A stretch of DNA of 64,000 bases from Clostridia bacterium (GCA_017620395.1 JAFZQJ010000034.1:1395-65394); one strand, 5' to 3'. Shown: positions 6,610-53,180, counted from the first letter of the stretch. The notes: a model not told the origin generated them from the sequence alone. Numbers and translations: made by a program.

Positions 6610-9600
6610 ATGGTATTTCGTGTTTTCACCGAGAGAAAGCGCGGCTTCGCCGCGGAGGCGGCGCGGACGCTTTCGGATATAAGAGAACTGCTCGGCGTGA
6701 CCTCCGTCACGGGTGTGCGCCTGCTCAACCGCTACGACGCGGAGGGTATGAGCGAAGCGGATTTCCGCGCCTGCCTGACGACCGTCTTTTCCGAGCCGCA
6801 GATGGACGATATCCTGTTCGAAGTGCCGCAGGGGAACTACACGGCGTTCGCCGTCGAATACCTGCCGGGGCAGTTCGATCAGCGCGCCGATTCCTGCGCG
6901 CAGTGCATCCAGCTCGCCTGCGGAGGCGAGCGCCCGGCCGTGCGAAGCGGCAAGGTCTACCTGCTCGAAGGCGACGTCACCCCCGCTCAGCTCGAAGCGG
7001 TGAAAAAGTACATCATCAATCCCGTCGAGAGCCGCGAGGCGTCCTTCGACAAGCCGGAAACGCTGCGTATGGACGCCGACGCGCCCGCGGACGTCGCGGT
7101 TCTGGACGGCTTCACGCGGCTTGACGACGCGGGGCTCGACAAGGTCATCGCGGACTACCGCCTCGCGATGGATCACGCGGATATCGCCTTCTGCCGCGAC
7201 TACTTCCGCGGAGAAGGGCGCGATCCGTCGCTTACCGAGCTGCGTATGCTCGATACCTACTGGTCCGACCACTGCCGCCACACCACCTTCGGCACGGTTA
7301 TCGAGAGCGTCGAGCTTGCCGATCCCGCCGTCGCGGCGGCTTACGCGCGCTTTGAGGATATGCGCCGCGAGCTCGGCAGGACGAAGCCCGTCACGCTTAT
7401 GGAACTCGCGACTATCGGCGCGAAATATCTGAAAGCGAAGGGACTGCTGACCGACCTCGACGAATCCGAGGAGATCAACGCCTGCACAGTGAAGATAAAA
7501 GCCGTCGTCGACGGCGAGGCGCAGGACTGGCTGCTGCTCTTCAAAAACGAAACGCACAACCACCCGACCGAGATCGAGCCCTTCGGCGGAGCCGCCACCT
7601 GCATCGGCGGCGCGATTCGCGATCCGCTCTCCGGCAGGGCTTACGTATACCAGGCGATGCGCGTGACCGGCGCGTCCGACCCGACCGTTCCGATATCGGA
7701 AACGCTATCCGGCAAGCTGCCGCAGCGCAAGATAGTTACCGAAGCGGCGGCGGGATATTCATCTTACGGCAACCAGATCGGGCTCGCGACCGGGCTCGTT
7801 GACGAAATATACCATCCCGGCTACGCCGCGAAGCGCATGGAGATCGGCGCGGTCGTCGGCGCGGCTCCCGCGCGCAACGTGCGGCGCGAAGTTCCCGCCC
7901 CGGGCGACGTCGTGATCCTGCTCGGCGGCAGAACCGGACGCGACGGCTGCGGCGGCGCGACCGGATCGTCTAAATCCCACTCCGTCGCCTCGCTCGAGCA
8001 GTGCGGCGCGGAGGTGCAGAAGGGCAACGCGCCCGAGGAGCGCAAGCTCCAGCGCCTCTTCCGAAACAGCGAGGCCGCGCGGCTGATAAAGCGCTGCAAC
8101 GACTTCGGCGCTGGCGGCGTATCCGTCGCCATCGGCGAGCTCGCTGACGGCATGGAGATCAACCTCGACCTCGTTCCGAAGAAGTACGACGGGCTCGACG
8201 GCACCGAGCTCGCGATAAGCGAATCGCAGGAGCGTATGGCGGTCGTGCTCGCGGCCGCGGACAAGGCGCGCTTCCTCGAGCTCGCCGCGGGCGAGAACCT
8301 CGAGGCCGTGCAGGTCGCGGAGATAACCGCCGAACCCCGCCTCGTCATGAAATGGCGCGGCAAAACCATAGTCGATATCTCGCGCGAGTTCCTCAATTCC
8401 AGCGGCGCGCCGAAATACACCTCCGTCAGGGTGGACGCTCCCGCGCCCGAAGCGGAAGCGCCCGTCGAAGGCGGCTTTGCGGAGCGCGTCAAGGCGCTCG
8501 CCTCGGACCTCAACGTCTGCTCCAAGCGCGGACTTTCCGAGCGCTTCGACTCGACCATAGGCGCGGCGACGCTGCTTTCGCCCTTCGGCGGAAAGCGCAG
8601 ACGCACTCCCGCGCAGGCGATGGCGGCGCTGCTTCCCGCGGACGGCGAGACCGACGCCTGCTCGATAATGGCGTACGGCTTCGAGCCGTACCGCACCGAA
8701 CGCGATCCCTACGCCGGCTCGTATACCGCCGTCGCGCAGTCTGTGGCGAAGGTCATCGCCGCGGGCGGCAAACGCGCGAATACGCATCTTACTTTCCAGG
8801 AATACTTTCAGCGGCTCGGCTCGGCGCCGGAAAACTGGGGCAAGCCGTTCGCCGCGCTGCTCGGCGCGCTCGACGCGCAGATAGACCTCTCCCTCGCCGC
8901 GATCGGCGGCAAGGACTCGATGAGCGGCAGCTTTGAGAAGTTCCATGTTCCGCCTACGCTCGTTTCTTTCGCCGTCGCGTCCGGCGTTCAGTCCGACGTC
9001 ATCGCGCCGGAGTTCAAACGCGCCGGAGCGCGCGTCTTCCTGCTCCGTCCGGACGAAGAGGGCGGCAGACCAACCGCCGCGGGACTGACCACCGCGTTCG
9101 ATTATGCGGAAAAACTCATCGCGGATAAGAAGGCGGTTTCCGCCTACGTCGTCGGCGGCAAGGGCGCCGCCGAGGGCGTGATGAAGTGCTGCTTCGGCAA
9201 CGGGCTCGGCTTCGCCTTCGCGGACGGCGCGGATCCCTTCGCGCCGCACGCCTGCTCCTTCATTCTTGAGGCCGCCGACGGCTTCGAGCCGCGGGCCGCA
9301 GAGGGCTTTGAAATCTCGCTGCTCGGCGTTGTTACAGGCGAATACACGATCGCGTTCGGAAACGAAAAGGCCGATTTAAGCGAAATCGAAGCGCTCTACG
9401 AGGGCCGCCTCGAATCCGTCTTCCACAGCTTTGCCGCGCCGGCGGAAAAACCGCCCGTGCTCGCGTATGAAGGCAAAAGCGCCGCCGCTCCGGCGGTGCT
9501 GACCGCGAAGCCGCGCGTTTTCATACCCGTCTTCCCGGGCACGAACTGCGAATACGACACCGCCCGCGCCTTTGAGAAGGCCGGCGCGGAGCCGGACGTC

Positions 9601-10308
9601 TTCGTTCTCCGCAACCTCACCGCCGCGGATATCGCCGCCTCCGCTTCGGAAGCGGCGCGCCGCATAGCGCGGTCGCAGATCATATTCATCCCCGGCGGAT
9701 TTTCCGGCGGCGACGAGCCGGACGGAAGCGGCAAGTTCATCACCGCGTTCTTCCGCAGTCCCGCCGTCAGCGAAGCGACGGGCGAGCTGCTCGACGTCCG
9801 CAAAGGACTTATGGGCGGCATCTGCAACGGCTTCCAGGCGCTCGTAAAGCTCGGGCTGCTGCCTTACGGCCGCATCAGAGAAGCGACCTCCGACTCCCCG
9901 ACGCTGACCTACAACGTCATCGGCAGACACCAGTCGCGTATGGTGCTGACCCGCGTCGCGTCCGCGCTCTCGCCCTGGCTTTCCGCCTGCGAGGTCGGCG
10001 ACGTCCATCTCGTTCCCGTATCCCACGGCGAAGGCCGCTTCGTCGCGCCGGAGCCGCTGCTGCGCGAGCTCGCGGATAACGGGCAGATCGCGACTCAGTA
10101 CTGCGACGCGGATGGAACGCCCTCCGGCGATATCGAATACAACCCCAACGGTTCCTACTGGGCGGTGGAGGGCATAACCTCCGCCGACGGCCGCATCTTC
10201 GGCAAGATGGGGCACAGCGAACGCGTTTACGGCAAGCTTTACAAAAACATACCCCACACGCGCGAGAACGGAATGTTCGCCTCGGCGGTGAGGTATTTCA
10301 AGGGTTGA
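6610..10308 (+). CDS. purL: Phosphoribosylformylglycinamidine synthase, single-chain (fused PurL/PurQ type)
   Basis: 1232 aa with an FGAM synthetase core (NHPTEIEPFGGAATCIGG) and a C-terminal glutaminase (GGFSGGDE, GICNGFQ, SHGEG). Confidence 0.93.
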   Translation: MVFRVFTERKRGFAAEAARTLSDIRELLGVTSVTGVRLLNRYDAEGMSEADFRACLTTVFSEPQMDDILFEVPQGNYTAFAVEYLPGQFDQRADSCAQCIQLACGGERPAVRSGKVYLLEGDVTPAQLEAVKKYIINPVESREASFDKPETLRMDADAPADVAVLDGFTRLDDAGLDKVIADYRLAMDHADIAFCRDYFRGEGRDPSLTELRMLDTYWSDHCRHTTFGTVIESVELADPAVAAAYARFEDMRRELGRTKPVTLMELATIGAKYLKAKGLLTDLDESEEINACTVKIKAVVDGEAQDWLLLFKNETHNHPTEIEPFGGAATCIGGAIRDPLSGRAYVYQAMRVTGASDPTVPISETLSGKLPQRKIVTEAAAGYSSYGNQIGLATGLVDEIYHPGYAAKRMEIGAVVGAAPARNVRREVPAPGDVVILLGGRTGRDGCGGATGSSKSHSVASLEQCGAEVQKGNAPEERKLQRLFRNSEAARLIKRCNDFGAGGVSVAIGELADGMEINLDLVPKKYDGLDGTELAISESQERMAVVLAAADKARFLELAAGENLEAVQVAEITAEPRLVMKWRGKTIVDISREFLNSSGAPKYTSVRVDAPAPEAEAPVEGGFAERVKALASDLNVCSKRGLSERFDSTIGAATLLSPFGGKRRRTPAQAMAALLPADGETDACSIMAYGFEPYRTERDPYAGSYTAVAQSVAKVIAAGGKRANTHLTFQEYFQRLGSAPENWGKPFAALLGALDAQIDLSLAAIGGKDSMSGSFEKFHVPPTLVSFAVASGVQSDVIAPEFKRAGARVFLLRPDEEGGRPTAAGLTTAFDYAEKLIADKKAVSAYVVGGKGAAEGVMKCCFGNGLGFAFADGADPFAPHACSFILEAADGFEPRAAEGFEISLLGVVTGEYTIAFGNEKADLSEIEALYEGRLESVFHSFAAPAEKPPVLAYEGKSAAAPAVLTAKPRVFIPVFPGTNCEYDTARAFEKAGAEPDVFVLRNLTAADIAASASEAARRIARSQIIFIPGGFSGGDEPDGSGKFITAFFRSPAVSEATGELLDVRKGLMGGICNGFQALVKLGLLPYGRIREATSDSPTLTYNVIGRHQSRMVLTRVASALSPWLSACEVGDVHLVPVSHGEGRFVAPEPLLRELADNGQIATQYCDADGTPSGDIEYNPNGSYWAVEGITSADGRIFGKMGHSERVYGKLYKNIPHTRENGMFASAVRYFKG

Positions 10309-31045: not shown

Positions 31046-31077
31046 AAAAAAACAGCCGACGCCGTCGGCTGTTTTTT
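31046..31077 (+). terminator. Rho-independent terminator
   Basis: AAAAAAACAGCCGAC-gc-GTCGGCTGTTTTTT. Confidence 0.85.
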
Positions 31078-31211
31078 GTCATCCTGATCGGCGGCAAAGC
31101 CGTATTTGTACGGGCGATCTGATCGCCCGTCATTCCGAGCGTATGTGAGGAATCCCCCAAGTGCCGCAGCACGTTTGTCATCCTGAGCGAGCGAAGCGAG
31201 TCGAAGGATCC
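31078..31211. repeat. Three direct copies of a REP-like unit (gtcat[ct]c[ct]ga..g(g)a(a/t)tcc)
   Basis: The units start at 31078, 31129 and 31177. A related inverted pair lies at 37878-37964. Confidence 0.75.
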
Positions 31212-31234
31212 TGAAGGTAACGGTACTGAAAAAG

Positions 31235-31298
31235 AAAAAGTGTGTATTCGGAACAGGAACCTCCGTCCAAACCCGTTTTTTCCGAATATACACTTTTT
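31235..31298. repeat. 19-bp inverted repeat (1 mismatch) with a 26-nt spacer, overlapping the sigma-gene promoter -35
   Basis: AAAAAGTGTGTATTCGGAA ... TTCCGAATATACACTTTTT. Confidence 0.7.
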
Positions 31299-31315
31299 AT
31301 TATTTATGTTATAAT
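31287..31315 (+). promoter_or_regulatory. Putative promoter of the sigma/anti-sigma/dockerin operon
   Basis: TATACA-17 nt-TATAAT with TG at -15/-14 (TGtTATAAT), about 70-80 nt upstream of the sigma start. Confidence 0.4.
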
Positions 31316-31383
31316 GAAGAAAACCCGTGACCGACGGCGCGAAAATGCGTCTATTGGTATGAAAGGCCTTTTTACAAAGGGGA

Positions 31384-31953
31384 ATGGAGTGCGGCGTGAA
31401 CGACGAAAGAATAGTCGCATTGTTCTGGAACAGGGACGAAAGCGCGCTTGCCGAAACGGAAAAGCGCTACGGCGACTACTGCCTTTATATCGCCGAAAAC
31501 GTGCTCCGCAACGCGCGCGACGCGGAGGAGTGCGTCAACGACGCGCTGCTCGCCGCCTGGAACTCCATCCCGCCGAACAGACCGGATAACTTCAGAGTCT
31601 ATCTCGGCGCGCTCGTGCGCAACGCCGCGCTCGACGTCTGGCGGCGCGGGAACGCAAAAAAGCGCAAAGCCGCGTCCGTCGCTTCGCTCGAAGAGCTCGG
31701 CGAGCTTGCCTCCGCCTTCGACGTGGAAGACGCCGTCGGCGCCAAAGAGCTCTCGCGCCTGATCTCCGATTACCTGACGACGCTTGACGAAACGGAGCGA
31801 AAAGTCTTCGTCCGCCGCTATTGGTGCTATGAGCCGATCGAGGCGATATGCGCGCGTTACGGCTTCGGCAAAAGCAAGGTCAAAATGATGCTCAAACGCA
31901 CGAGGGACGGCCTCGCCGCGTATCTGAAAAAGGAAGGTCACTATGAATATTGA
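31384..31953 (+). CDS. RNA polymerase sigma factor, sigma-70 family (ECF-like, regions 2 and 4)
   Basis: About 185 aa with ..FWNRDESALAETEKRYG..DAEECVNDALLAAW.. and a C-terminal HTH. GTG 31396 (GGAG 6 nt upstream) may be the real start. Confidence 0.85.
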   Translation: MECGVNDERIVALFWNRDESALAETEKRYGDYCLYIAENVLRNARDAEECVNDALLAAWNSIPPNRPDNFRVYLGALVRNAALDVWRRGNAKKRKAASVASLEELGELASAFDVEDAVGAKELSRLISDYLTTLDETERKVFVRRYWCYEPIEAICARYGFGKSKVKMMLKRTRDGLAAYLKKEGHYEY

Positions 31954-33121
31954 TATATTGAATGAAGCTATCGGAGGGATCGACGCTTACATCGTCGAAG
32001 AGGCGCTCGCCGACGGAGAAAAGAAGCCGAAGGTGACCGCCTTCGCGCAGCGTCCGTGGATGAAATGGGCGGCTGCGGCGGTCGCGATAGTCGTCATCGC
32101 CGCCGGAACGCCGCTCGCGCTGAAAGCGATCGGCTCCTTCCGCAACGAAAACTTCGTCGCCCCGAACGGCAGCGGGAACGGCAACCCCGGCGCGGTTGCT
32201 CCCGTCGACAGCGGCGAGCCGGAAAGCAGCAGCGAGCCGGATAGCAGCTCCGCGCCGGAAAGTGAAAACAACGCCTCGTCTGAACAAAGCGGCGAAAGCC
32301 GCTCCCGCGGCAGCGAGCAGCAAACCCCGCCCGCCTCGGATCCGCCCGAAACGAGCTCGCCCGAGCCAGACTCCTCCTCATTTGATATCGAAGTCGGCTC
32401 CGGCAGCATCGGCGGCCCGCTGAGCATCGGCGGCAGCCATTTCGGCGGCAACTTTCACAAAAAGAATATGCCCGCGGTCACGTATCGGATAAACGGCGAA
32501 TCACAATCCTTCGATTATGACCACTCGGCATGGATAATGATCGACGCGGAATCCGACCTTGACGGCAACGAGGGCGTATATATCATAGATTATTACTCCG
32601 GCAAAGACGGCAGCAGCGCAGTCGCGTATGACGGTTCCGAAGAGCTGATGGAATACACCGGCCGCTATAACGACTACGGCTCCGGCGATGAGATCTCCGA
32701 AGTAGCAGCCACGGAAGCTGCAAAAAACGTGCTGCTTAACACCGATCTCCCGTTCGCTGCGCTCGAAAACCTGCAGATCTCGAAATCGGAATCCGGCAAA
32801 AACTATCACAGGATCGTGGCTTCCTTCACCGGCGGCGAAGTCGAGATTCTTCTCAACAAAGACGGCAGCCTGAAGCACTTCATCGTCAACAGAGACGCCT
32901 CCGTCTGGCTGACGCCGGAGAGGATAGCGGCGGGCAGGGAAAAGCTCGACGCGAAGATTGACGCGTTGAGCGCCGAGCGGCCGAACGAGCGCTTCGTCGC
33001 TACCGGCGTCGAGGTATATCAAAAGCTCGCGAATAAGATATACGCGATCTACGAAGTGATCCAGTATCCGTATCAAGGCTCGGATTTCCAAAAACGGTTA
33101 AGATTCTACTGCGTCGTATAA
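31943..33121 (+). CDS. Putative anti-sigma factor: short cytoplasmic N-terminus, one TM, acidic Ser/Pro-rich linker, about 240-aa ectodomain
   Basis: Overlaps the sigma gene by 11 nt. The N-terminus (..IDAYIVEEA..) and TM helix (WMKWAAAAVAIVVIAAG) are typical of partners of this sigma family. A PepSY-like stretch lies in the ectodomain. Confidence 0.65.
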   Translation: MNIDILNEAIGGIDAYIVEEALADGEKKPKVTAFAQRPWMKWAAAAVAIVVIAAGTPLALKAIGSFRNENFVAPNGSGNGNPGAVAPVDSGEPESSSEPDSSSAPESENNASSEQSGESRSRGSEQQTPPASDPPETSSPEPDSSSFDIEVGSGSIGGPLSIGGSHFGGNFHKKNMPAVTYRINGESQSFDYDHSAWIMIDAESDLDGNEGVYIIDYYSGKDGSSAVAYDGSEELMEYTGRYNDYGSGDEISEVAATEAAKNVLLNTDLPFAALENLQISKSESGKNYHRIVASFTGGEVEILLNKDGSLKHFIVNRDASVWLTPERIAAGREKLDAKIDALSAERPNERFVATGVEVYQKLANKIYAIYEVIQYPYQGSDFQKRLRFYCVV

Positions 33122-33173
33122 CGCCGCTTTTCGGATAACGCTTGACAAATCAGAGGGGGAGGAAATAATAACA

Positions 33174-34220
33174 ATGAAAAACCTCACGAAAAAACTGCTC
33201 GCGGCGCTTCTGACGCTGCTGATGGTCGCTGCACTGATGCCGGTGACGGCTTCGGCGGATCAGAACGCGATCATCATCGTCGAGCTGAACGAGCCGTATT
33301 ACGGTGAAAACCTCAACGAGATACTTCCCGAGATCAAAATGGAGGTGTCGTATCCCTTCATCGACGGCTACGCGTTCGTCGTCTATTACGCCCACACCTC
33401 GGATGAGGACGCCTACGCCGCCGCTGAGGCTTTGGCGACGAACTCTCGCGTCAAGAGCGCGACCTACTGCCCCGGTAACCCGACCGAAAACACCTCCCGC
33501 GTCAGGTTCCATATCACGATCTCGGAGGATTATTTCGGCGAGGATTATTACACGCCGATAACTTCGGTCGAGCTGGGGAAGCTTTTCCCGAACAGGGTTA
33601 TCAAGCGTGCCCGCAAATGGGGTTTCCGCAATTTCGATATTTTCTTCGATATCGGCTCGTCGGAAGACTGGTACGAAATCTATGACGAGTTAAAATCCAA
33701 CCCGTTCATTCTGTCGTTCCACACCTTCGACATGGGCGGTTCCGGCAAAGCCGTTACGATCGGCACTCTCGCGGTGACGACGAAGGCGGAGCATACCGAA
33801 AATGAGATCATCGGCCTGTATGCGGACTTGGGAGCATATGAAGTTGTCGAATCATACTCCGCGCATTATTTCAAGTTCAACATTCGTGACAGATCGCTCA
33901 GAGGAACGCTCGAGGCGGTCAAAGCGCTGAAGAACGATCCCGACGTCGCAAACGTCGTATGGACAGATACGATTGGCTTTCCGACCGTAATGCCGAAGGA
34001 GCTTGAAGAAGCCGACTTCCTTGCGCCGGAACGCCCGGAGGCGACGGTGGAGACCGCCCTCGGCGCGTTAAGGATAGCCGCGAAGCTCGGTGAAGCGAAA
34101 AACGGCGTTTACGATTACAAGCTCGCCGACGCGATCTGGCAGTTCGACTGCGACGGCGACAAGGCGATCACCGTTTCCGACGCGCTTATCCTCCTTCGCA
34201 AAGCCGCGAAGCTTGCGTAA
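33174..34220 (+). CDS. Secreted protein with three tandem ~80-aa repeats and a C-terminal dockerin-like module
   Basis: Has a signal peptide (..PVTASADQ) and ends DCDGDKAITVSDALILLRKAAKLA-stop. The first F-hand is degenerate. Confidence 0.75.
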   Translation: MKNLTKKLLAALLTLLMVAALMPVTASADQNAIIIVELNEPYYGENLNEILPEIKMEVSYPFIDGYAFVVYYAHTSDEDAYAAAEALATNSRVKSATYCPGNPTENTSRVRFHITISEDYFGEDYYTPITSVELGKLFPNRVIKRARKWGFRNFDIFFDIGSSEDWYEIYDELKSNPFILSFHTFDMGGSGKAVTIGTLAVTTKAEHTENEIIGLYADLGAYEVVESYSAHYFKFNIRDRSLRGTLEAVKALKNDPDVANVVWTDTIGFPTVMPKELEEADFLAPERPEATVETALGALRIAAKLGEAKNGVYDYKLADAIWQFDCDGDKAITVSDALILLRKAAKLA

Positions 34221-34287
34221 TACTCCATACCTTAATCCACGGTAATTCAGATTATCAATACCCGATTAACAATAAGGAGGAACTATT

Positions 34288-35886
34288 ATGAAAAAACTTA
34301 CCAAAATCATTTCCGCAATGCTGACGGCGGTAATGCTGTTCAGTCTGTTCGCGGTGCCTGCCGCCGCGTACGCGGACGGCGGCGTCTGCGGCGAAAATCT
34401 CACGTGGACGCTTGAAAACGGCGTCCTCACCATCAGCGGCGCGGGTCCTATGGAGAACTACCTGAAGTACAACGCGCATGACACGTACTCCGTAGAGCGC
34501 CCCGATCTGGACCGCCTTGCGCCGTGGGGAACGGATATCAAAAACGTCATTATCGAGGACGGCGTAACGACTATCGGCGACTTTGCGTTCTATAACTGCA
34601 AGCAGATAGAGAGCATAGAGATCCCCGCGAGCGTCAAGGTCATAGGCAAGAGCGCGTTTGCGGACGCGGTCCTGCAGACGCTCGTACTGCCGGAAGGCGT
34701 TGAAGAAGTGAAAGAATACGCGTTTTTCGACTGTGATCTCAAGAGCAACGATTTCCGTATGCCCGACAGTCTCAGGATAATAGGCGAAAAAGCTTTTCAG
34801 TGCTATATGGGTATGATTGAGATCGGCGAGGGCGTTGTGGATATAGGCAAGGAAGCTTTCGGCAACAACGTGGTAATGAATATCCCTGAGAGCGTACAGC
34901 ATATCGGCAAAGACGCGTTCAAGATAACTTCTTTCTACAAAGACGAGAGCAACTGGAGAATGGACGCGCTCTATATCGGCAAGTGGCTGATAAAGGTCAA
35001 GGAGAATACCAAACTCGAGTTCTTCGTCGTCAAACGCGGCACGGAGCACATCGCGGATTATGCTTTTGAAAATTGCAAGTCGCTGAAAGACGACATAATA
35101 CTTCCGAAGAGCTTGAAGTCCATAGGAAGAAGCGCGTTCCAGGCCTGCAACAATCTCGAAGCGCTCGACATACCGGAAGGAGTGACGGATATCGGCCCCG
35201 GCGCGTTTTCCGGCTGCAAGGGCCTGACCGAGCTCAAACTTCCTGAGTCGATAACCGAGATAGGCGATCAAATGTTATCCGGCTTGAGCTTTGAGCAATT
35301 CGAGATTTCGGATAACGTGGAACGTATAGGCGAAGGCGCTTTCCTGAGTTGTATGCAGCTTAAATCGATCACGATCCCGTCAGGCGTGAAAAGAATAGAG
35401 CCGTGGACGTTTATGAGCTGCACGTCGCTCGAGGAAGTGAACCTCCCCGAAGGCCTTGAAAGCATCGGCGATTTCGCTTTCCTGGCCTGTGCCTCTCTGC
35501 GCAGGATCGTTATTCCCAGAAGCGTGACGAGCATCGGCATCGGTCTTTTCTATTTCAACGTGCCGACGCCCACGGATATAGTTATGGCGGTATACGAGGG
35601 CTCGTATGCGCAGACCTACGCCGAAGAAAACGGCATAGCTTATGAGATAATCGGCGAAGAAAAACCGATAGACGAGAATAACGGGGAACTTGTCGGCGAT
35701 ATGGACGGCGACGGTGAGATCACCGTTTCCGACGCGCTACGCGCGCTGCGTATCGCCGCGAAGCTTGAGGCCCCCGTTGCGGCGAAGGGCACGAGAAGCG
35801 CGCTCCTCGGCGACGTTGACGGCGACGGAGCCGTTACGGTCGCGGACGCACTTGCGATCCTCCGCAAAGCCGCGAAGCTTGCGTAA
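34288..35886 (+). CDS. Secreted BspA-type leucine-rich-repeat protein with C-terminal dockerin
   Basis: Has a signal peptide and repeated ..IP.SV..IG..AF..C..L motifs (LRR_5-like). Two F-hand segments, GDMDGDGEITVSDALRALRIAAKL and GDVDGDGAVTVADALAILRKAAKLA-stop, span nt 35695-35883. Confidence 0.85.
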   Translation: MKKLTKIISAMLTAVMLFSLFAVPAAAYADGGVCGENLTWTLENGVLTISGAGPMENYLKYNAHDTYSVERPDLDRLAPWGTDIKNVIIEDGVTTIGDFAFYNCKQIESIEIPASVKVIGKSAFADAVLQTLVLPEGVEEVKEYAFFDCDLKSNDFRMPDSLRIIGEKAFQCYMGMIEIGEGVVDIGKEAFGNNVVMNIPESVQHIGKDAFKITSFYKDESNWRMDALYIGKWLIKVKENTKLEFFVVKRGTEHIADYAFENCKSLKDDIILPKSLKSIGRSAFQACNNLEALDIPEGVTDIGPGAFSGCKGLTELKLPESITEIGDQMLSGLSFEQFEISDNVERIGEGAFLSCMQLKSITIPSGVKRIEPWTFMSCTSLEEVNLPEGLESIGDFAFLACASLRRIVIPRSVTSIGIGLFYFNVPTPTDIVMAVYEGSYAQTYAEENGIAYEIIGEEKPIDENNGELVGDMDGDGEITVSDALRALRIAAKLEAPVAAKGTRSALLGDVDGDGAVTVADALAILRKAAKLA

Positions 35887-35934
35887 CAATCCATATGTTT
35901 GAATTGAACAGGGAGGGGCAAAGGAGGAGTTACA

Positions 35935-36768
35935 ATGAAAAGAGTTGGCAAAACTATTGCGCTATTTTTGGTGTTGGCCATTTTAGCAGGGGCGGTATCT
36001 TTCGTAAGTTTTGCGCAGAAGGACTCAGACGATGTGTATTATCCTGATGATTATCCGTGGCTTACGCTCGGGGAAGTATCAAAAACCGCAACTGACGTTA
36101 TTCGTCTTCGTGTCGGTGAAACGTGTGAAATAGCAATAATAAACCTTGAAGCCGGCATAATGGATTTCGGTGGGACGACTTTAGCGCAGTATTGGCTTGG
36201 AGAAAAAACAGACGGAAACAGGATCAATATGTTTACTCTATGGAGAGTGAAGGATTCTTCTATTATCGATTTTACAGAAGAATACAAATCGGCGCATCCG
36301 TCGGAATATGAAACCCTTCCTATGCTGGAGCAAGATGCGCGATATCTCGAGCGATATGATATGTGTGCTGGCTTTATACCATATCTCAAGTACGCCTTTA
36401 CGGAATCGGATATAGATGAATCTGGTTATGAATATGGCGATATTGAGAATGGTAACTGGGGACAGCGCAGAGCCGTTATAGTCGGCAAAAAAGCAGGAAC
36501 AACGACTATTGAAGTTGCGAAAGGCGGATGGGGAATAACATGTCCGGCAAGAGGGACGCTTACGGTGATTTGCTATGATGAAACTGTTGGCGACGTTGAC
36601 GGCGATGGGGAAGTCACTGTAGCAGACGCGCTTTCCGTGTTGCGCGTAGCAGCGAAGCTTGCGCCGCAGACGAAGAGCACCGGTTCAGTTTTCGATTTCG
36701 ACGGCGACGGAGCCGTCACAGTCGCGGACGCGCTTGCGATACTGCGCGTCGCCGCGAAGCTTGCGTAA
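35935..36768 (+). CDS. Secreted protein (AT-rich body, Ig-like patches) with C-terminal dockerin
   Basis: Has a signal peptide. The dockerin spans nt 36589-36765 (GDVDGDGEVTVADALSVLRVAAKLA .. FDFDGDGAVTVADALAILRVAAKLA-stop). Confidence 0.75.
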   Translation: MKRVGKTIALFLVLAILAGAVSFVSFAQKDSDDVYYPDDYPWLTLGEVSKTATDVIRLRVGETCEIAIINLEAGIMDFGGTTLAQYWLGEKTDGNRINMFTLWRVKDSSIIDFTEEYKSAHPSEYETLPMLEQDARYLERYDMCAGFIPYLKYAFTESDIDESGYEYGDIENGNWGQRRAVIVGKKAGTTTIEVAKGGWGITCPARGTLTVICYDETVGDVDGDGEVTVADALSVLRVAAKLAPQTKSTGSVFDFDGDGAVTVADALAILRVAAKLA

Positions 36769-36807
36769 GTGAGTTCGGTTTCCTCTTAATAACGCAGAAG
36801 TAATGCG

Positions 36808-36839
36808 GAAGCCGCCGCGTCGGAAGACGCGGCGGCTTC
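36808..36839. terminator. GC-rich 14-bp hairpin between convergent genes (probable terminator; weak T-tracts)
   Basis: GAAGCCGCCGCGTC-ggaa-GACGCGGCGGCTTC. Confidence 0.55.
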
Positions 36840-36857: not shown

Positions 36858-37562
36858 TCACGCGTTGACTCTTCCGCGCCTCTCGCGGTACTGCTTCGGG
36901 GTCACGCCGACGGCCTTGTGAAACACCTTCGTGAAATAGCTCTGGTCGTCGAAGCCGCACGCGCCCGCGATATCCACTATGCGAACGGTATTGTCGAGCA
37001 GCAGCTGTTTGCTTCGCTCGATCCGCACCTCGCGCACGTAGTCGGTCAAACTCATGCCGATCTCCTCCTTAAAGACGGTGGAGATATACGACCGCGAGAG
37101 GAAGACCTTTTTCGCCACGTCGTCCAGCGATATTTTTTTCGCGTAGTTGGCGTTGACGTATTCCGTTATTTTATAAACGGCGGTCGAGTGCCTTATCCGC
37201 GGCAGGTCGAAGGAGTAGTCGATGAACCTGTGCAGCACCCCCGTGACCCACTCGTTCATATCCTCGAAGGAGGTGAAGCGGTCTATGTCGCCGAGATACT
37301 TCGTGTTCAGCGCCATGACCTCGCGCATGTCCGCGCCGGAGTCTATGACCGCGCGGGAGAGCACGACCACCAGCTCTATCATCCGCGCCCTTATCTCCGC
37401 GAGGTCGAAGTCGTTGGAAAAGTATATGTGTCCGATCAGCTCGTTCAGCGCGTTCTGCGCGCCGAGCTTGTCGTGAGTGAGTATCATCGAGCGCAGCGCC
37501 TTTTCCTTTTCGATGGGGTAGTCGACGGCGTATCCGCCGCCGGCGTGCGGAGCTTCACGCAT
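36858..37562 (-). CDS. AraC-family transcriptional regulator
   Basis: 234 aa starting at ATG 37562 (GAGGAGG SD). Has a C-terminal double HTH (..LDDVAKKVFLSRSYISTVFK.., ..IAGACGFDDQSYFTKVFHK..). The track's 80-codon N-terminal extension is rejected. Confidence 0.85.
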   Translation of the reverse strand: MREAPHAGGGYAVDYPIEKEKALRSMILTHDKLGAQNALNELIGHIYFSNDFDLAEIRARMIELVVVLSRAVIDSGADMREVMALNTKYLGDIDRFTSFEDMNEWVTGVLHRFIDYSFDLPRIRHSTAVYKITEYVNANYAKKISLDDVAKKVFLSRSYISTVFKEEIGMSLTDYVREVRIERSKQLLLDNTVRIVDIAGACGFDDQSYFTKVFHKAVGVTPKQYRERRGRVNA

Positions 37563-37743
37563 TTTTCCGCCTCCTCTCGTGATTTTTGTAATTATATCAG
37601 ATTTTTTGGAAAATTTCAAGGTGCGGGAGGTAAAAAGGCGTTCGTCGGATATTTCATATAATATGATATATTTATGTTGCAAACGGCCGCGGCGTATGTT
37701 ATAATCGGCTTGTATAATCGCCGTTGCGGCGTGGAGGAACGCT

Positions 37744-40062
37744 ATGGAAAAATCACTGAGAATAAAAATAATATCGCTGCTTGCCGCGCTGACGCTGCTC
37801 ATAGCGGCTGTGTGCGTGCCGTCCGCGGGCGCGGAGCGCTATGAAGCTCCCGCGGCCGTGAAAGAAACGGCGTCCGGACATCCTGAACGAAGCGAAGGAT
37901 CCCCCGGATATTCCGACCTTTTGCGTGAGGAAGGGGATTCCTCGCCCGTCGGGCTCGGAATGACAGACCTCGCCCCGACCGAAGACAGCGCTTTCATAGG
38001 CGAGGCGACCGTGCCCGTGTTTGAAACGGCGGTGCGCGGCGAATCCGACGTCTCGGGCGCGACGCCGTGGCAGTATAACTACACCGACGAAAGCTGGACG
38101 GCTTACGAAGCCGCGCTCGCCTCCGCGCAGACCGCGGATGAACGCGCCGCCGCGTTCGACCTGCTTGCGCCTCGCAACACCGAGGCCGTCACCGCCGGCT
38201 TTTTCAGCGGCTGGAACACATCCGACGTCAACGCCGTCGTAACCGCGAACAGCGGCCGCCTCTGCGACTCCATCGGCGACAGTCTGAACACCAACGGCGT
38301 ATGGAACAACGGCGATTTCTCCCGCAACACGGTCTTTGATGCGGGCGACGGCTGGTTCTCCATGACCGCGGCTGCCGACTTCGCGGGCAAGGCGATGGGC
38401 TGGAAGAATATGGACCGCAGCGCGACGCTGAATCCCAACAAGCAGAGCGCCGGCGCGGCGTACCCCGAGATGGACGTCTCCGGCCTTTCCTACGCCGAGG
38501 GCATACGCTTCAAGCTTGAGGTCTACGGTCCCGAATACGCCGTGCTCGGAACCGACGCCGTCGAGCGCATACTGATCGGTCTTTCCAACTGCGACACCAT
38601 GGTGCGCGAACAGTACGCGCTGAACGTCAAACCCTCGCAGGTCGGCTCCGACGGATATATCAACATCCCGTTCAGCTGCTTTGTCAACGCGTGGTGGTGC
38701 CGCGCTTTCTCGCAGTCCGAGCTCGAGGACGTCATCGTCTTCATAATCGAAGCCTACGGCGAAGCCGAGGGCACGACCGTGAAGGTTTCAGACCTGCACG
38801 GTTATATAACCGTCGCTCCCGTTATCCCGCCGGAGCCGCGCGAGCCGGGCTTCGCGGAGCCGAGGGCGAGCGAATACGTCGGTTCGACCTTCCGCGCCAC
38901 CGACTTCCGCATTATAAAATTCGACGAGATGTTCCCCGAGGGCTTCGCCGGCGACACGAGCTGGGATCCGATGGGCATCGACGATAACGGCATAATATAC
39001 TTCGGCTACACCGGACGCCGTACCGACCTGATCCCCGACGAGGTGATAGAGGATTTCGCCGTCTTCTCGTATGATCCGGAGACTGACGTCGTCAAGTTCC
39101 TCGGCACCCTCATTGAGGCGAGCAAGGCGTGCGGCAACTACGTTTACGGCGAGGAAATCCCGAAGGGACACACGAAGTTCTACTGTATTGATAACAAGAT
39201 GTATCTTGCGAGCCAGAGCTTCCACGACTACAAGGACAAGATCGACGGCGCGGACGGCTATATGACCAAGCGCGGCGCCCATCTGTATATGTACGACATC
39301 GAGAAGGAAGCGCTCATCGACCTTTCCGCGTCCTTCCCGGGCGGCGTATGGTGCGAGCACCAGGGAGTCGTCGCGCTGAACTATATGCCGGAACTCGGCA
39401 AGCTCGTCGGCTTCACGCATCCGCTTGCGGACCTCGTCTTCTACGATCTCGCGACCGGCACGGTAGACCGTTACGTCAACGGCATCCCGTGGTCGCTCGG
39501 CAATCCGCTGAGCCGCGAGATAATCGTCAGCGGCGACAGAGTGTATCTCTACCGCGGCGTTGAGGATCCCGGGCAGCGCGCCGAGATCCAGTGGCCGGTC
39601 TACTGCTATGACTACGGCGAAAACCGCCTCTATCAGACGGGAGACACGATGAAGGGCGGCTTCTGGAACGGTCAGGCGACGACCTCGGACGGCAAAACGA
39701 CCTACATCAGCGGCTGCTGCGGATACCTTTACAAGATGGATATGGAGACCGGCAGAGTGACCTTCCTGCGCGATATGGACCTCGACGGCGAGAACGTCAT
39801 CGGTTATACCTATTCGATATCGATGTCGCCGGACGAAACGAAGCTGTTCTATATCCCGACGGCGCGAAAGCCCGGCCGCATTTACGAATACGATATCGCG
39901 ACGAACACACTCGCAGTTGTCGCGGACGTTCAGCAGAGCGTCTACTGCGGCAGCAATATCGTGACGAAGGATAACTGGTACTACTTCACCCGCTTCGGCG
40001 AGAACGGCACGTGGGAGGGCGCTCCGAGCGTCGTCGCCTACAAGCTCGAGCCGTGGGAATGA
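37744..40062 (+). CDS. Secreted 772-aa protein: signal peptide, repeat-derived linker, CBM-like middle region, beta-propeller-like C-terminal half
   Basis: Signal peptide ends ..SAGA. The C-terminal half has recurrent hydrophobic-Y/F-x-D/G blade-like strings (IIYFGYTG, KMYLASQ, HLYMYDIE, LVFYDLATG, RVYLYRG, VYCYDYG, YLYKMDMETG, RIYEYDIATN, NWYYFTRF). Confidence 0.7.
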   Translation: MEKSLRIKIISLLAALTLLIAAVCVPSAGAERYEAPAAVKETASGHPERSEGSPGYSDLLREEGDSSPVGLGMTDLAPTEDSAFIGEATVPVFETAVRGESDVSGATPWQYNYTDESWTAYEAALASAQTADERAAAFDLLAPRNTEAVTAGFFSGWNTSDVNAVVTANSGRLCDSIGDSLNTNGVWNNGDFSRNTVFDAGDGWFSMTAAADFAGKAMGWKNMDRSATLNPNKQSAGAAYPEMDVSGLSYAEGIRFKLEVYGPEYAVLGTDAVERILIGLSNCDTMVREQYALNVKPSQVGSDGYINIPFSCFVNAWWCRAFSQSELEDVIVFIIEAYGEAEGTTVKVSDLHGYITVAPVIPPEPREPGFAEPRASEYVGSTFRATDFRIIKFDEMFPEGFAGDTSWDPMGIDDNGIIYFGYTGRRTDLIPDEVIEDFAVFSYDPETDVVKFLGTLIEASKACGNYVYGEEIPKGHTKFYCIDNKMYLASQSFHDYKDKIDGADGYMTKRGAHLYMYDIEKEALIDLSASFPGGVWCEHQGVVALNYMPELGKLVGFTHPLADLVFYDLATGTVDRYVNGIPWSLGNPLSREIIVSGDRVYLYRGVEDPGQRAEIQWPVYCYDYGENRLYQTGDTMKGGFWNGQATTSDGKTTYISGCCGYLYKMDMETGRVTFLRDMDLDGENVIGYTYSISMSPDETKLFYIPTARKPGRIYEYDIATNTLAVVADVQQSVYCGSNIVTKDNWYYFTRFGENGTWEGAPSVVAYKLEPWE
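37878..37964. repeat. Inverted pair of REP-like units embedded in-frame (87 nt) in the 37744-40062 CDS
   Basis: acatcctgaacgaagcgaaggatccccc ... ggggattcctcgcccgtcgggctcggaatgac. Same family as 31078-31211. Confidence 0.75.
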
Positions 40063-51032: not shown

Positions 51033-53180
51033 GTGAAAAGAATAACTGCAATCATAATGTGCGTTGTATTTTTGATGTCGGTCGGTGTCTTGAATGTGAG
51101 CGCATCATATATTGATGAGCGTTGGCAATGGTCAAATGACGTTCAACAGGAACGTTGTACATATCGTGTTTGGCATGAGGCGTACGAAAGACTTGGTATA
51201 AGCTTACCGGACACGTGGGGGAATGCTGCTACTTGGTATGATAATGCGCCATATGACGGATATCCAGTTGATAATAACCCATCTGCAAATTCTATTGCTT
51301 GCTGGGATGATGGGGGTTGGGGACATGTCGCATATGTAACAAGCGTTGATTCGGAGTGGGTTTATTATAGACATGCGGGGTTTGACCCCAGTGATAGGTA
51401 TACTGGCTATTGGTACAATGACGATAAAAGAAGAATAGACAATATGGGATGGGATTTCGAGGGATATATTCACCTCACCTCTTTAGATCTCGGCTCTGAT
51501 TTCTACGCGTTCATAATCAAGCAGGATTCGTGGAAGCACCTTGCGGCCGAAAACGGCAATGTTCAGTTACCGTCGACCGGAAATAACAGCTCCGATCCAA
51601 AGCAGATATGGCACTTTATCAGGATGTCTGACGGCTCTTACAAAATCGTCAACGAGTTTTACGATATGTGTATGGATGCGGCGAATTTCGGCACAAGCAA
51701 CGGTACCAACGTCGGATTGTGTACGAGCAACGATTCTACCGCGCAAAGATGGTTCATTTCAACTATGGGCAACGGATACGCGCTTTCGCCGGCATATACG
51801 AGTATGGTTATAGACGTCACCGGCGGCGTGAACGATCCCGGTACCAATGTGCAGCTTTGGCAGTCCGGAAACACGTCGGCTCAGGCTTTTTCGATATACA
51901 AACTCACGGAGGACGGCGTTACCTATTCCAAGCCCGCGAAGCCGTCCGCGGTGACGGTGAACGCTTCGGTTTCCGCCAATAAGGTTTTGAGTATCTCGTG
52001 GAGTCAGTCGCCTCTGAAGGGATCGTTTGACGCGCGCGCATACGACGTTTATATCTATAAAGACAGCGCGAGCAGCACGCCGATCCATACAAAAATGAGT
52101 TTGAGCGCCACTTCATATACATACAGCCTCCCTTCTGAAGGAACGTATTACGTTAAGGTTGCCGCCGTCAACACGAAGTATTACGGTTGGTATACGTTCT
52201 CCTCGACGGTAAAGGTGGAAACGAAGAGCGACTTGCTAGGAGATATGGACGGCGACGCTTCTATAACCGTTTCGGACGCGCTCGCCGCGCTGAGGATTGC
52301 CGCAAGGCTTGCGAGCGCCACGAGCAGCGTGAAGAAGATAGCCGACGTGGATTTCGACGGAACGATAACGGTTTCCGACGCGCTTGCGATACTGCGCGTC
52401 GCCGCGAGGCTTGCCGGTACGAAGACGCTCACCGTACAGTCGCTGAGCAGCTGTACGCTGTATCCCGAATGCTATAAGAACTATGCCGTTTCTTCCAACT
52501 ATACGGACGCCCGCGTCGAGTGGTTGAGCAGCGACGCGTCCGTCGCAACCGTCGGCAGCAACGGCAAGGTAACGGCTAAAAGCGCCGGAACGGCGACGAT
52601 AACCGCAAAGGTTTCCGTTATCGGTCAGCAGAAATCCGTTTCGTATACCGTCACGGTCAAGAACCCGAGCGTTGTTTTGGCGCCTGCTTCTCAGAGCACG
52701 TCTTATGACGCGTATTCTAACAACAGAGTCATTATCAGCGGTCATATCGCTTACAAGTGCCCGCTTCCTTCCGTGACGACGGACGTCAACGAGGCATATT
52801 GCGGCGACAGCCGCGTGAGCACTTCAAGTATTACAAAGGAGATAACGTCCGGTGATGGTAAGTTCAGCGGCGAATACTTCTATTCGTATCAGCCCGGCAC
52901 GATAAAGATCAAGTATTCATTCTCCGTCGCCGGCAAGACTTACAGCAGCACTTATACCTGCAACCTCACGCTGACGCGCACCAATCCGGATATGGGGCAG
53001 TATATAAGAAGCTCGACTTCGACGTCTTCGACGAATCTGGGTATGGTACCCGCGAATACGACTTATGTGATAACGCAGGTCGCGGTCACCGGAACGGTAG
53101 GAGAGTCGGGATGCCAGGTCTGGGGATACACGACCTATGGCGGCGTATCCGGATGGACTTTGATCGAGTATTGGCAGTAA
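51033..53180 (+). CDS. Secreted multidomain cell-wall hydrolase: CHAP + ricin-type lectin + Fn3-like + internal dockerin + Big_2-like + SH3-like C-terminus
   Basis: GTG start after an AAGGAGAG SD, then a signal peptide. CHAP Cys/His context (..ERCTYRVW.., GNAATWYD, GWGHVAYVTSV). QxW-type lectin repeats (KQIWHF, AQRWFI, VQLWQS). Dockerin at nt 52239-52418. Big_2 string (SSDASVATVGSNGKVTAKSAGTATITA). Confidence 0.8.
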   Translation: MKRITAIIMCVVFLMSVGVLNVSASYIDERWQWSNDVQQERCTYRVWHEAYERLGISLPDTWGNAATWYDNAPYDGYPVDNNPSANSIACWDDGGWGHVAYVTSVDSEWVYYRHAGFDPSDRYTGYWYNDDKRRIDNMGWDFEGYIHLTSLDLGSDFYAFIIKQDSWKHLAAENGNVQLPSTGNNSSDPKQIWHFIRMSDGSYKIVNEFYDMCMDAANFGTSNGTNVGLCTSNDSTAQRWFISTMGNGYALSPAYTSMVIDVTGGVNDPGTNVQLWQSGNTSAQAFSIYKLTEDGVTYSKPAKPSAVTVNASVSANKVLSISWSQSPLKGSFDARAYDVYIYKDSASSTPIHTKMSLSATSYTYSLPSEGTYYVKVAAVNTKYYGWYTFSSTVKVETKSDLLGDMDGDASITVSDALAALRIAARLASATSSVKKIADVDFDGTITVSDALAILRVAARLAGTKTLTVQSLSSCTLYPECYKNYAVSSNYTDARVEWLSSDASVATVGSNGKVTAKSAGTATITAKVSVIGQQKSVSYTVTVKNPSVVLAPASQSTSYDAYSNNRVIISGHIAYKCPLPSVTTDVNEAYCGDSRVSTSSITKEITSGDGKFSGEYFYSYQPGTIKIKYSFSVAGKTYSSTYTCNLTLTRTNPDMGQYIRSSTSTSSTNLGMVPANTTYVITQVAVTGTVGESGCQVWGYTTYGGVSGWTLIEYWQ

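Follow-up and report, generated by a model that had tools for sequence, protein, structure and literature searches.

Putative ECF sigma/anti-sigma operon with a cis-encoded dockerin regulon in uncultured ruminant-gut Clostridia

Related systems

To our knowledge, the regulation of cellulosome-type complexes is understood almost only through the SigI/RsgI polysaccharide sensors of a few cultured clostridia. The stretch analyzed here, called the window, comprises 64,000 nucleotides from Clostridia bacterium (GCA_017620395.1, JAFZQJ010000034.1:1395-65394). It harbors a cluster of five genes in which an extracytoplasmic function (ECF) sigma factor gene is followed by the gene of a candidate membrane-bound anti-sigma factor and by three genes for secreted proteins (P3, P4, and P5) that carry a dockerin or a degenerate form of it. 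The cluster is rather probably an autoregulated ECF operon of an uncultured ruminant-gut Clostridia lineage that encodes its dockerin regulon in cis. It suggests that abundant uncultured rumen Clostridia have a second, unrelated mode of regulation, in which an ECF pair and its dockerin cargo are united in one apparent operon. The cassette occurs in several apparently insulated copies per genome, and its cargo is adhesin-like or protease-related instead of consisting of glycoside hydrolases. No description of such an ECF/anti-sigma/dockerin cassette was found in the literature reachable by full-text search.

In Clostridium (Acetivibrio) thermocellum, several autoregulated, paralogous SigI/RsgI pairs with extracellular sensors are tied to cellulosomal dockerin proteins (PMC4711584). 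The present system resembles them in that several paralogous pairs of a sigma factor and a putative membrane anti-sigma factor occur per genome, each with an extracellular sensor and in linkage with dockerin genes. It differs in the sigma factor, which is a two-domain ECF protein, in the ∼35-aa N-terminal segment that takes the place of RsgI_N, and in the sensor, which is PepSY-like and contains neither a SEAL domain with an Asn-Pro site nor a carbohydrate-binding module (CBM). The targets are also different, being non-enzymatic and encoded in cis in the same putative operon. The first-pass annotation of the window had already set the system apart from SigI/RsgI, and the domain searches agree, as a sigma-4 domain was detected and RsgI_N, SEAL, and CBM were not.

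The SigW/RsiW and SigV/RsiV pairs of Bacillus subtilis, classical ECF pairs with a single-pass anti-sigma factor and release by regulated intramembrane proteolysis, share with the cassette the overlapping sigma and anti-sigma genes, a candidate autoregulatory promoter of the AAC/CGT type, and SigW as the nearest structure of the sigma factor; an M50 protease homolog is also encoded on a contig of the same metagenome assembly. The differences lie in the anti-sigma factor, which is unrelated in sequence (neither zf-HC2 nor an RsiV domain) and belongs to a narrow family, and in the regulon, which apparently consists of cis-encoded dockerin proteins and not of envelope-stress genes. By its domain content, the system belongs to the ECF class, and its putative anti-sigma family is undescribed.

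The dockerin proteins of Ruminococcus flavefaciens FD-1 contain 28 leucine-rich repeat (LRR), 16 peptidase, and 3 serpin modules (PMC2930009). The same signal peptide-LRR-dockerin architecture is present in the window, and protease- and inhibitor-related dockerin proteins are found here as well. The dockerin genes described here, however, stand directly behind an ECF pair, whereas sigma factors are mentioned 0 times in PMC2930009, and the host belongs to another, high-GC, uncultured Clostridia lineage.

Two further comparisons concern single domains. Stand-alone subtilisin-propeptide-like proteins are potent subtilase inhibitors, one of which is the Plasmodium SUB1 inhibitor of the MEROPS I9 type (PMC6993865). 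P3 likewise consists of free-standing modules that are homologous to a subtilase prodomain and take on a β-α-β-β-α-β fold; it differs in its three tandem modules, its dockerin, and the lack of an Inhibitor_I9 match, and inhibition is only predicted. In Firmicutes, PepSY domains are reported from membrane-anchored proteins and from proteins of the anti-sigma type, including SEAL-PepSY fusions (Brogan et al. 2023). The tandem PepSY region of YpeB is the best structural match of the ectodomain of the anti-sigma candidate, which, unlike the reported fusions, has no SEAL or Asn-Pro hairpin and follows a long disordered stalk that those fusions lack.

Organization of the gene cluster

The five open reading frames (ORFs) of the cluster all lie on the plus strand (31384-31953, 31943-33121, 33174-34220, 34288-35886, and 35935-36768). 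The first two, the sigma and anti-sigma genes, share 11 nt, and the later gaps measure 52, 67, and 48 nt. The ORF map thus reproduces exactly the coordinates, gaps, and overlap given in the first-pass annotation. The cluster is flanked by two hairpins:

31046-31077, plus strand: intrinsic terminator of the preceding ireB/orf97 unit, hairpin then T run; upstream limit of the cassette
36808-36839, plus strand: strong terminal hairpin 3′ of P5 (dG −34.9 kcal/mol, z −7.3); probable end of the transcription unit

The upstream hairpin (dG −21.5 kcal/mol, z −7.2) is directly followed by its T run and is the clean terminator that had been described ahead of the cluster. The strong hairpin described behind the cluster is also present, with the correction that the U tract does not adjoin it; UUUUU begins ∼15 nt past the stem. 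The folding of the three internal gaps does not stand out from that of shuffled sequence (z 1.24, −1.79, and 0.09), which upholds the earlier statement that they are free of hairpin terminators. A sigma-70-like site (TTGACA-16-AATAAT) was found at 33142-33169 inside the first gap. It is unlikely to be an internal promoter, as it overlaps the spacer between the ribosome-binding site (RBS) and the ATG and is absent from the orthologous locus L007.

The chromosomal surroundings of the cluster are ordinary (pur operon, pheST, ireB, V-type ATPase). The GC content is 59.5% for the window, 60 to 66% for the flanking housekeeping genes, and 44 to 56% for the cargo genes (33000-36600), with P5 as the lowest-GC stretch of the cluster (44%). 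The low GC content is consistent with exchangeable or acquired cargo.

Recurrence of the cassette

The DNA around genes orthologous or paralogous to that of the membrane protein was collected, and all loci were scanned with a dockerin profile and Pfam. In the following, W is the cassette of the window and L-numbers denote related loci. Dockerin ORFs lie directly 3′ of the anti-sigma gene in 13 of the 14 related loci that have downstream DNA. Because of this recurrence, the link between regulators and dockerins is no chance adjacency, and the association of the regulator pair with dockerin genes that had been read from the window is borne out by the same layout elsewhere. Outside the cassettes, a single dockerin ORF was found in ∼200 kb, which encodes a CHAP-RicinB-dockerin-Big_2 protein at 51057-53180 of the window.

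At least three paralogous cassettes are present in this metagenome-assembled genome (MAG; locus tags J5441_07780, J5441_06545, and J5441_04440), two of those besides the window being L005 and L006. Across all loci, the cassettes occupy at least four different chromosomal positions. Their cargo varies. P3-like proteins are encoded in most cassettes, LRR_5 proteins in the window and L020, a 681-aa Ig-like repeat protein in L008, L011, and L019, and Big_2 in L019. In L009 and L019, the cargo begins with a dockerin-bearing subtilase (Peptidase_S8). No glycoside hydrolase was found in any cassette by the Pfam scan. The ireB/AraC position of the window cassette is also that of L008, which has other cargo. 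Because the cargo differs between cassettes, the unit is best described as a sigma/anti-sigma pair that recurs with interchangeable dockerin cargo. Judged by gene content, the cassette is a multi-copy, mosaic family whose cargo has a protease/prodomain theme.

Two minor features were noted in the related loci. The dockerin-subtilase gene of L009 (7975-9818) is apparently frameshifted; the signal peptide and part of the prodomain are in a 98-aa fragment (7975-8271), and the remainder of the prodomain is in the open frame that follows (8244-9818), together with the S8 domain and the dockerin. The homolog in L019 is intact. The gap between the anti-sigma gene and the first cargo gene contains, in L006, L008, L009, and L011, a short GC-rich hairpin that lacks a T tract (e.g., GGATGGTGCACCGTCC), followed by AACGAT. 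Hairpins of this type do not occur in the window and may be processing or stability elements.

Sigma factor and candidate promoters

The regulatory end of the cassette comprises the following features:

31287-31315, plus strand: sigma-A-type promoter candidate with the extended −10 TGTTATAAT at 31307-31315 (10/12 match with TG)
31327-31352, plus strand: ECF-type promoter candidate; −35 GTGACC at 31327-31332, 14-nt spacer, −10 GCGTCT at 31347-31352
31360-31373, plus strand: palindromic leader element TGAAAGGCCTTTTT(A), directly 5′ of the RBS, conserved across cassettes
31384-31953, plus strand: ECF sigma factor gene (Sigma70_r2 and TIGR02937 matches); likely start GTG at 31396

The first gene product is a bona fide ECF-type factor. 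It is 185 to 189 aa long and contains the sigma-2 and sigma-4 domains only, as required for ECF (group IV) factors. Sigma70_r2 is matched with 39.5 bits (cut-off 24) and the NCBIfam model TIGR02937 (sigma70-ECF) with 58 bits (cut-off 42.9), in agreement with its first description as ECF-like, and the r4 match of 22.2 bits lies just under the cut-off of 24.1. The closest solved structure is SigW of B. subtilis (E 8.7e-4). The true start is probably the GTG at 31396, which gives 185 aa, since the sister loci have GGAG-N7-GTG in common but not the ATG of 31384.

The strict ECF motif has a single match in the 64 kb of the window and one match per related locus, always 5′ of the sigma gene; in none of this DNA does it precede a cargo gene. 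Three motif classes (GTGACC-N14-GCGTCT, GTGACC-N17-GTGTAT, and GTAACC-N16/17-GCTTCT) follow three sigma clades, and each of the three paralogs in this MAG has a different class. The order extended −10, GTGACC, 14-nt spacer, GCGTCT, small palindrome, RBS, and GTG is conserved 5′ of the sigma gene. Such a pattern would be expected of ECF promoters that are autoregulated and insulated from each other, and the element is regarded as a candidate promoter. As the strict motif stands only before the sigma gene and never before cargo, induction of the cargo would have to come by read-through. The sigma-A-type element TGnTATAAT is found at the same relative position in W, L006, L008 to L012, L016, L017, L021, and L023 and is absent from L005, L007, and L018.

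The palindrome (TGAAAGGCCTTT...) sits between the −10-like element and the RBS and is conserved across cassettes. Its arms co-change in L021, L022, and L023 (GCGAAAG..CTTTCGC, TGAAAG-AGT-CTTTCA), and the length of its center varies. It may be a 5′-terminal RNA hairpin or an operator, with weak fold z-scores. A structured leader RNA or riboswitch was also considered and rejected, as the leader 5′ of the sigma gene has no match in Rfam, its fold z-scores range from −2.2 to +2.2, and no hairpin is common to all loci.

Candidate anti-sigma membrane protein

The second gene encodes a single-pass membrane protein of 392 aa, which is divided into three parts:

31943-32056, plus strand: cytoplasmic N-terminal segment (residues 1-38) with the motif LNEAIGxIDxxIVEEA, the proposed sigma-binding part
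32057-32434, plus strand: transmembrane helix, juxtamembrane FRNENFVAPN, and ∼100-aa Ser/Glu/Pro-rich disordered stalk
32435-33121, plus strand: ectodomain (residues 165-392) with a six-strand β-unit and, C-terminal to it, two PepSY-like units of helix plus sheet

The protein has no match in Pfam or NCBIfam and belongs to a small family (48 word-indexed homologs; 97 profile matches among 1.84 billion representatives). Residues N70, V72, and P74 are nearly invariant. A role of the protein as the anti-sigma factor of the adjoining sigma factor is supported in three ways. The stop/start overlap of the two genes (11 or 4 nt) is kept in all cassettes. The identity of the N-terminal ∼30 residues tracks that of the sigma factor (Spearman 0.92 for 11 cassettes and 45 pairs, which are non-independent), whereas the identities of the transmembrane segment (−0.06) and the ectodomain (0.13) do not. 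Finally, the same N-terminal module and transmembrane helix recur directly after other ECF sigma genes, fused to a serpin in P0136 (L024/L025) and to an LRR_5 array in P0164 (L026/L027). Both of these genes overlap the end of an ECF sigma gene, and a secreted serpin gene adjoins P0136; serpin-type anti-sigma factors are not described in the literature reachable by full-text search. The label anti-sigma-like, which the first-pass annotation had given to the second gene, is thus supported by the conserved overlap and the co-variation of the N-terminus with the sigma factor.

The AlphaFold2 (AF2) model has a predicted local distance difference test (pLDDT) score below 50 over residues 24-161 and of ∼90 over the ectodomain (165-392). 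The best PDB match of the ectodomain by Foldseek is the C-terminal tandem PepSY domains of YpeB (5boi, probability 0.99, E 1.1e-3), which the ectodomain would resemble at the fold level. DUF4179 and PepSY, which the first-pass annotation had put forward for profile searches, gave no match, so that an assignment of the ectodomain to either family at the sequence level was dropped. The earlier observation that the sensor has no recognizable CBM agrees with the Pfam and NCBIfam searches, in which no CBM was found in the ectodomain.

Two other assignments of the ectodomain were rejected. An autoproteolytic domain like that of SEAL/RsgI was considered because SEAL is often fused to PepSY; the ectodomain has no Asn-Pro hairpin, no Pfam match, and no structural match of this kind, and neither SEAL nor RsgI structures are among its top 50 Foldseek matches in the PDB. 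A conserved K-x-[ND]-M-P motif is present instead of Asn-Pro. A cohesin-like ectodomain is unsupported by Foldseek.

Mosaic structure of the anti-sigma gene

An island of ∼270 bp (32040-32310 of the window), which covers the transmembrane helix, FRNENFVAPN, and part of the stalk, is common to the paralogs L005 and L006 of the MAG. Its DNA is 75 to 98% identical to these loci as opposed to 40 to 60% in the flanks, and 36 of 40 third codon positions in its core are identical. Between W and L007, the sigma factors are 39%, the ectodomains 72%, and the P3 proteins 78% identical, while L005 and L018 have 97% identical sigma factors, 48% identical ectodomains, and 79% identical cargo. Across the island, the phylogeny of sigma factor and N-terminus is incongruent with that of ectodomain and cargo. 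The comparison of loci suggests that the island arose by gene conversion or serves as a recombination hinge, at which sigma modules are joined to new sensor and cargo modules.

Dockerin cargo

The three secreted proteins are encoded as follows:

33174-34220, plus strand: P3; signal peptide, three tandem subtilase-prodomain-like ferredoxin-fold modules (residues ∼31-266), atypical dockerin (∼289-348)
34288-35886, plus strand: P4; signal peptide, BspA-type leucine-rich repeats, dockerin (residues ∼467-532), from Pfam
35935-36768, plus strand: P5; signal peptide, ∼190-aa N-terminal domain, dockerin (residues ∼216-277), from Dockerin_1

P3 has no match in Pfam, and Dockerin_1 is not found even at E 1. 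The AF2 model (pLDDT 81) contains three β-α-β-β-α-β units followed by three C-terminal helices, and Foldseek returns generic tandem ferredoxin folds of the RRM/ACT type. The origin of the modules is indicated by the dockerin-subtilase of L019. The prodomain of this protease is 43 to 48% identical to modules of the P3-like proteins in L005, L006, and L018 and 68% identical to a free-standing one-module dockerin protein that is encoded beside it. In hhalign, the P3 family profile matches the N-terminus of the L019 protein with a probability of 96.8% (E 2.8e-10), and the alignment takes in the characteristic module end '...EALKNNPYVK..'. Owing to this homology, P3 is interpreted as tandem subtilase-prodomain-like modules on a dockerin. 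A sequence-level assignment to Inhibitor_I9 was also tried and gave no match. By analogy with the stand-alone propeptide-like proteins that inhibit subtilases (PMC6993865), it is plausible that P3 is a docked protease inhibitor or chaperone.

The C-terminal ∼60 aa of P3 are homologous to the dockerins of P4 and P5 in BLAST (55% over 62 aa, E 2e-9; 48% over 60 aa, E 2e-8), and conservation within the P3 family (31 members, of which 9 match EF-hand_7 only) is highest in this tail. In the first dockerin segment, the helix is kept (TVETALGALRIAAKL) and the D-x-D-x-DG calcium loop is gone, so that only the second calcium loop is intact. From these alignments, the C-terminus of P3 is best called a degenerate dockerin.

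P4 and P5 contain two D-x-D-G-D-G loops each and match Dockerin_1 (PF00404) with 25.6 and 33.3 bits, respectively (cut-off 22.9). P4 additionally matches LRR_5 (PF13306) with 270.7 bits over four stretches, above the cut-off, whereas the matches of P5 in a PDB sequence search are confined to its EF-hand/dockerin part. The first-pass annotation had assigned duplicated dockerin-type F-hand segments to all three proteins and had named a score below the dockerin threshold as evidence to the contrary. The assignment stands for P4 and P5 and has to be amended for P3, which has lost its first loop and does not match Dockerin_1. It had also labeled the cargo as non-enzymatic; here, the LRR label of P4 and the propeptide-like label of P3 are retained, and the Ig-like label of P5 could not be confirmed.

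No cohesin (PF00963) was found among the scanned ORFs of the window or the called genes of the related loci (∼200 kb), a scan that did not extend to the whole genome, and a dockerin-profile search aimed at scaffoldins with cohesins and a dockerin returned short fragments only. Sequence models are known to miss divergent cohesins of ruminococci (PMC13463774). Since no cohesin was found in this DNA, the loading of the dockerin proteins onto a cohesin scaffold stays an assumption.

The dockerin gene outside the cassettes (51057-53180 of the window) encodes a protein of 707 aa with the order CHAP, Ricin-B lectin, internal dockerin, and Big_2, the fourth dockerin protein of the window. The gene has a low GC content at third codon positions (GC3 0.60), and is located just 3′ of the V-type ATPase operon, with no sigma/anti-sigma pair in its vicinity.

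Proposed mechanism

In the operon reading introduced above, the sigma factor would be tethered to the membrane through the N-terminal ∼35 residues of the single-pass anti-sigma factor, which would span the wall via its ∼100-aa disordered Ser/Glu/Pro stalk and end in the tandem PepSY-like ectodomain. A surface cue would lead to the destruction of the anti-sigma factor, most likely by regulated proteolysis. This route would be available because an M50 site-2 protease homolog is encoded in L005, on a contig of the same metagenome assembly. The freed sigma factor would then fire the GTGACC-N14-GCGTCT promoter ahead of its own gene. Read-through across the short, terminator-free gaps would lead to the synthesis of three secreted, dockerin-tagged, non-catalytic proteins, and transcription would stop at 36808-36839. 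Basal expression would be provided by the sigma-A-type extended −10 promoter just upstream.

The cue is probably a protein or a protease event and not a polysaccharide. Proteolysis is the most attractive cue because a PepSY-like sensor, prodomain-like cargo, subtilase cargo in sister cassettes, and a distant serpin sensor recur, and as such it is speculative. A broader idea is that of a class of protease-sensing ECF circuits in which ectodomains of inhibitor-type folds (PepSY-like in the window, serpin in distant relatives) report extracellular proteolysis, the sigma factor deploys dockerin-anchored prodomain-like inhibitors and other surface cargo, and the ∼270-bp hinge re-pairs the modules; this generalization is unlikely.

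Several points weigh against the operon reading or its parts. Co-transcription of the five genes and their dependence on the sigma factor are predicted from sequence. AT-rich −10-like hexamers, which could act as internal promoters, are found in several gaps inside the cassettes, among them the site at 33142-33169, and the partial dyad symmetry of the spacer/−10 region in some loci could indicate an operator or RNA element instead of, or besides, a promoter. The anti-sigma candidate has no recognizable anti-sigma domain (zf-HC2, RsgI_N, or DUF4179), and its N-terminus is modeled at low confidence. The fold match of its ectodomain to YpeB is only moderate, with a template modeling (TM) score of 0.33, and PepSY (PF03413) is not detected by the Pfam sequence models. 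Similarly, the fold matches of P3 are of the generic ferredoxin-like type, and Inhibitor_I9 (PF05922) is not detected by Pfam. The window cassette encodes no protease, and L022, the one exception among the 14 loci, is a sigma/anti-sigma pair without dockerin cargo.

If the operon reading is true, an unannotated membrane-protein family would gain a function, and the long-standing question of what dockerin proteins of the LRR, peptidase, and inhibitor types do would become approachable. The compact modules of the cassette (sensor, promoter, and cargo) could then also be used to engineer surface display.

Alternative explanations

A protease-sensing defense circuit, which is a more pointed form of the operon reading, is rather unlikely. 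The ectodomain or the exposed stalk would here serve as bait for extracellular subtilisin-type proteases, cleavage would be the site-1 event and free the sigma factor, and dockerin-anchored inhibitors of the P3 type would protect or tune the surface complex. Such a role would fit the homology of the P3 modules to subtilase prodomains, the dockerin-subtilases at the head of the cargo in L009 and L019, and the anti-sigma relative with a serpin ectodomain beside a secreted serpin gene. It is also consistent with the long, disordered stalk, the link of PepSY with enzyme inhibition, and the existence of stand-alone propeptide-like inhibitors (PMC6993865). The window cassette, however, is without a protease, P4 and P5 do not fit an inhibitor role, and the cargo of L008 is one Ig-like protein only; moreover, Inhibitor_I9 and PepSY go undetected by sequence.

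Adjacency without regulation is improbable. The sigma/anti-sigma pair would then be a generic envelope-stress module, and the dockerin genes would use promoters of their own, for which the sigma-70-like hexamers in the gaps could be candidates. The cargo GC content of 44 to 56%, unlike that of the regulator genes and flanks, would be expected of independently acquired genes, and in L022 the pair stands without cargo. What speaks against this explanation is that the layout recurs, with varying cargo, in 13 of 14 loci, which represent at least four chromosomal contexts. The gaps of 36 to 93 nt contain an RBS and no terminator, and the promoter-like site of the first gap is not conserved in the ortholog L007.

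A direct docking of the dockerins on the anti-sigma ectodomain, which would act as a non-cohesin receptor so that cargo occupancy feeds back on the sigma factor in the manner of a partner switch, is more improbable still. The lack of a cohesin nearby and the strict association of the ectodomain family with dockerin genes would suit it, as would the dockerin being the most conserved part of the P3 family. The ectodomain (72%) and P3 (78%) are also co-inherited between W and L007, whose sigma factors are 39% identical, but physical linkage suffices to explain this. The ectodomain has no cohesin-like Foldseek match, and between L005 and L018 it was swapped (48%) while the cargo was kept (79%).

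A polysaccharide sensor of the SigI/RsgI type that governs cellulosome enzymes shares the logic of multiple paralogous sigma/anti-sigma pairs with dockerin proteins and is nevertheless hardly credible, being contradicted by the domain tests (sigma-2 and sigma-4 domains instead of the SigI architecture; no RsgI_N, SEAL match, or CBM in the anti-sigma factor; non-enzymatic cargo with no glycoside hydrolase in any cassette).

Neighboring genes and repeats

An AraC-family regulator is encoded at 36858-37802 (minus strand), convergent with the cassette and divergent from the gene of a secreted protein of 772 aa without a Pfam match (37744-40062, plus strand). The 314-aa AraC ORF overlaps the start of the 772-aa ORF, and gene callers choose a later start (234 aa). 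The same gene pair is also found 3′ of the cassette in L008.

Between the upstream terminator and the promoter, a repeat of ∼48 nt that starts with GTCATYCYGAKCG is present in three tandem copies (31078-31220 of the window). Repeats of this type have six matches in the window compared to 1.1 expected, and similar ∼48-nt repeats lie 5′ of the sigma gene in L008 and L011. A related copy at 37877-37964 is read in frame within the 5′ part of the 772-aa ORF, where it encodes the peptide GHPERSEGSP....

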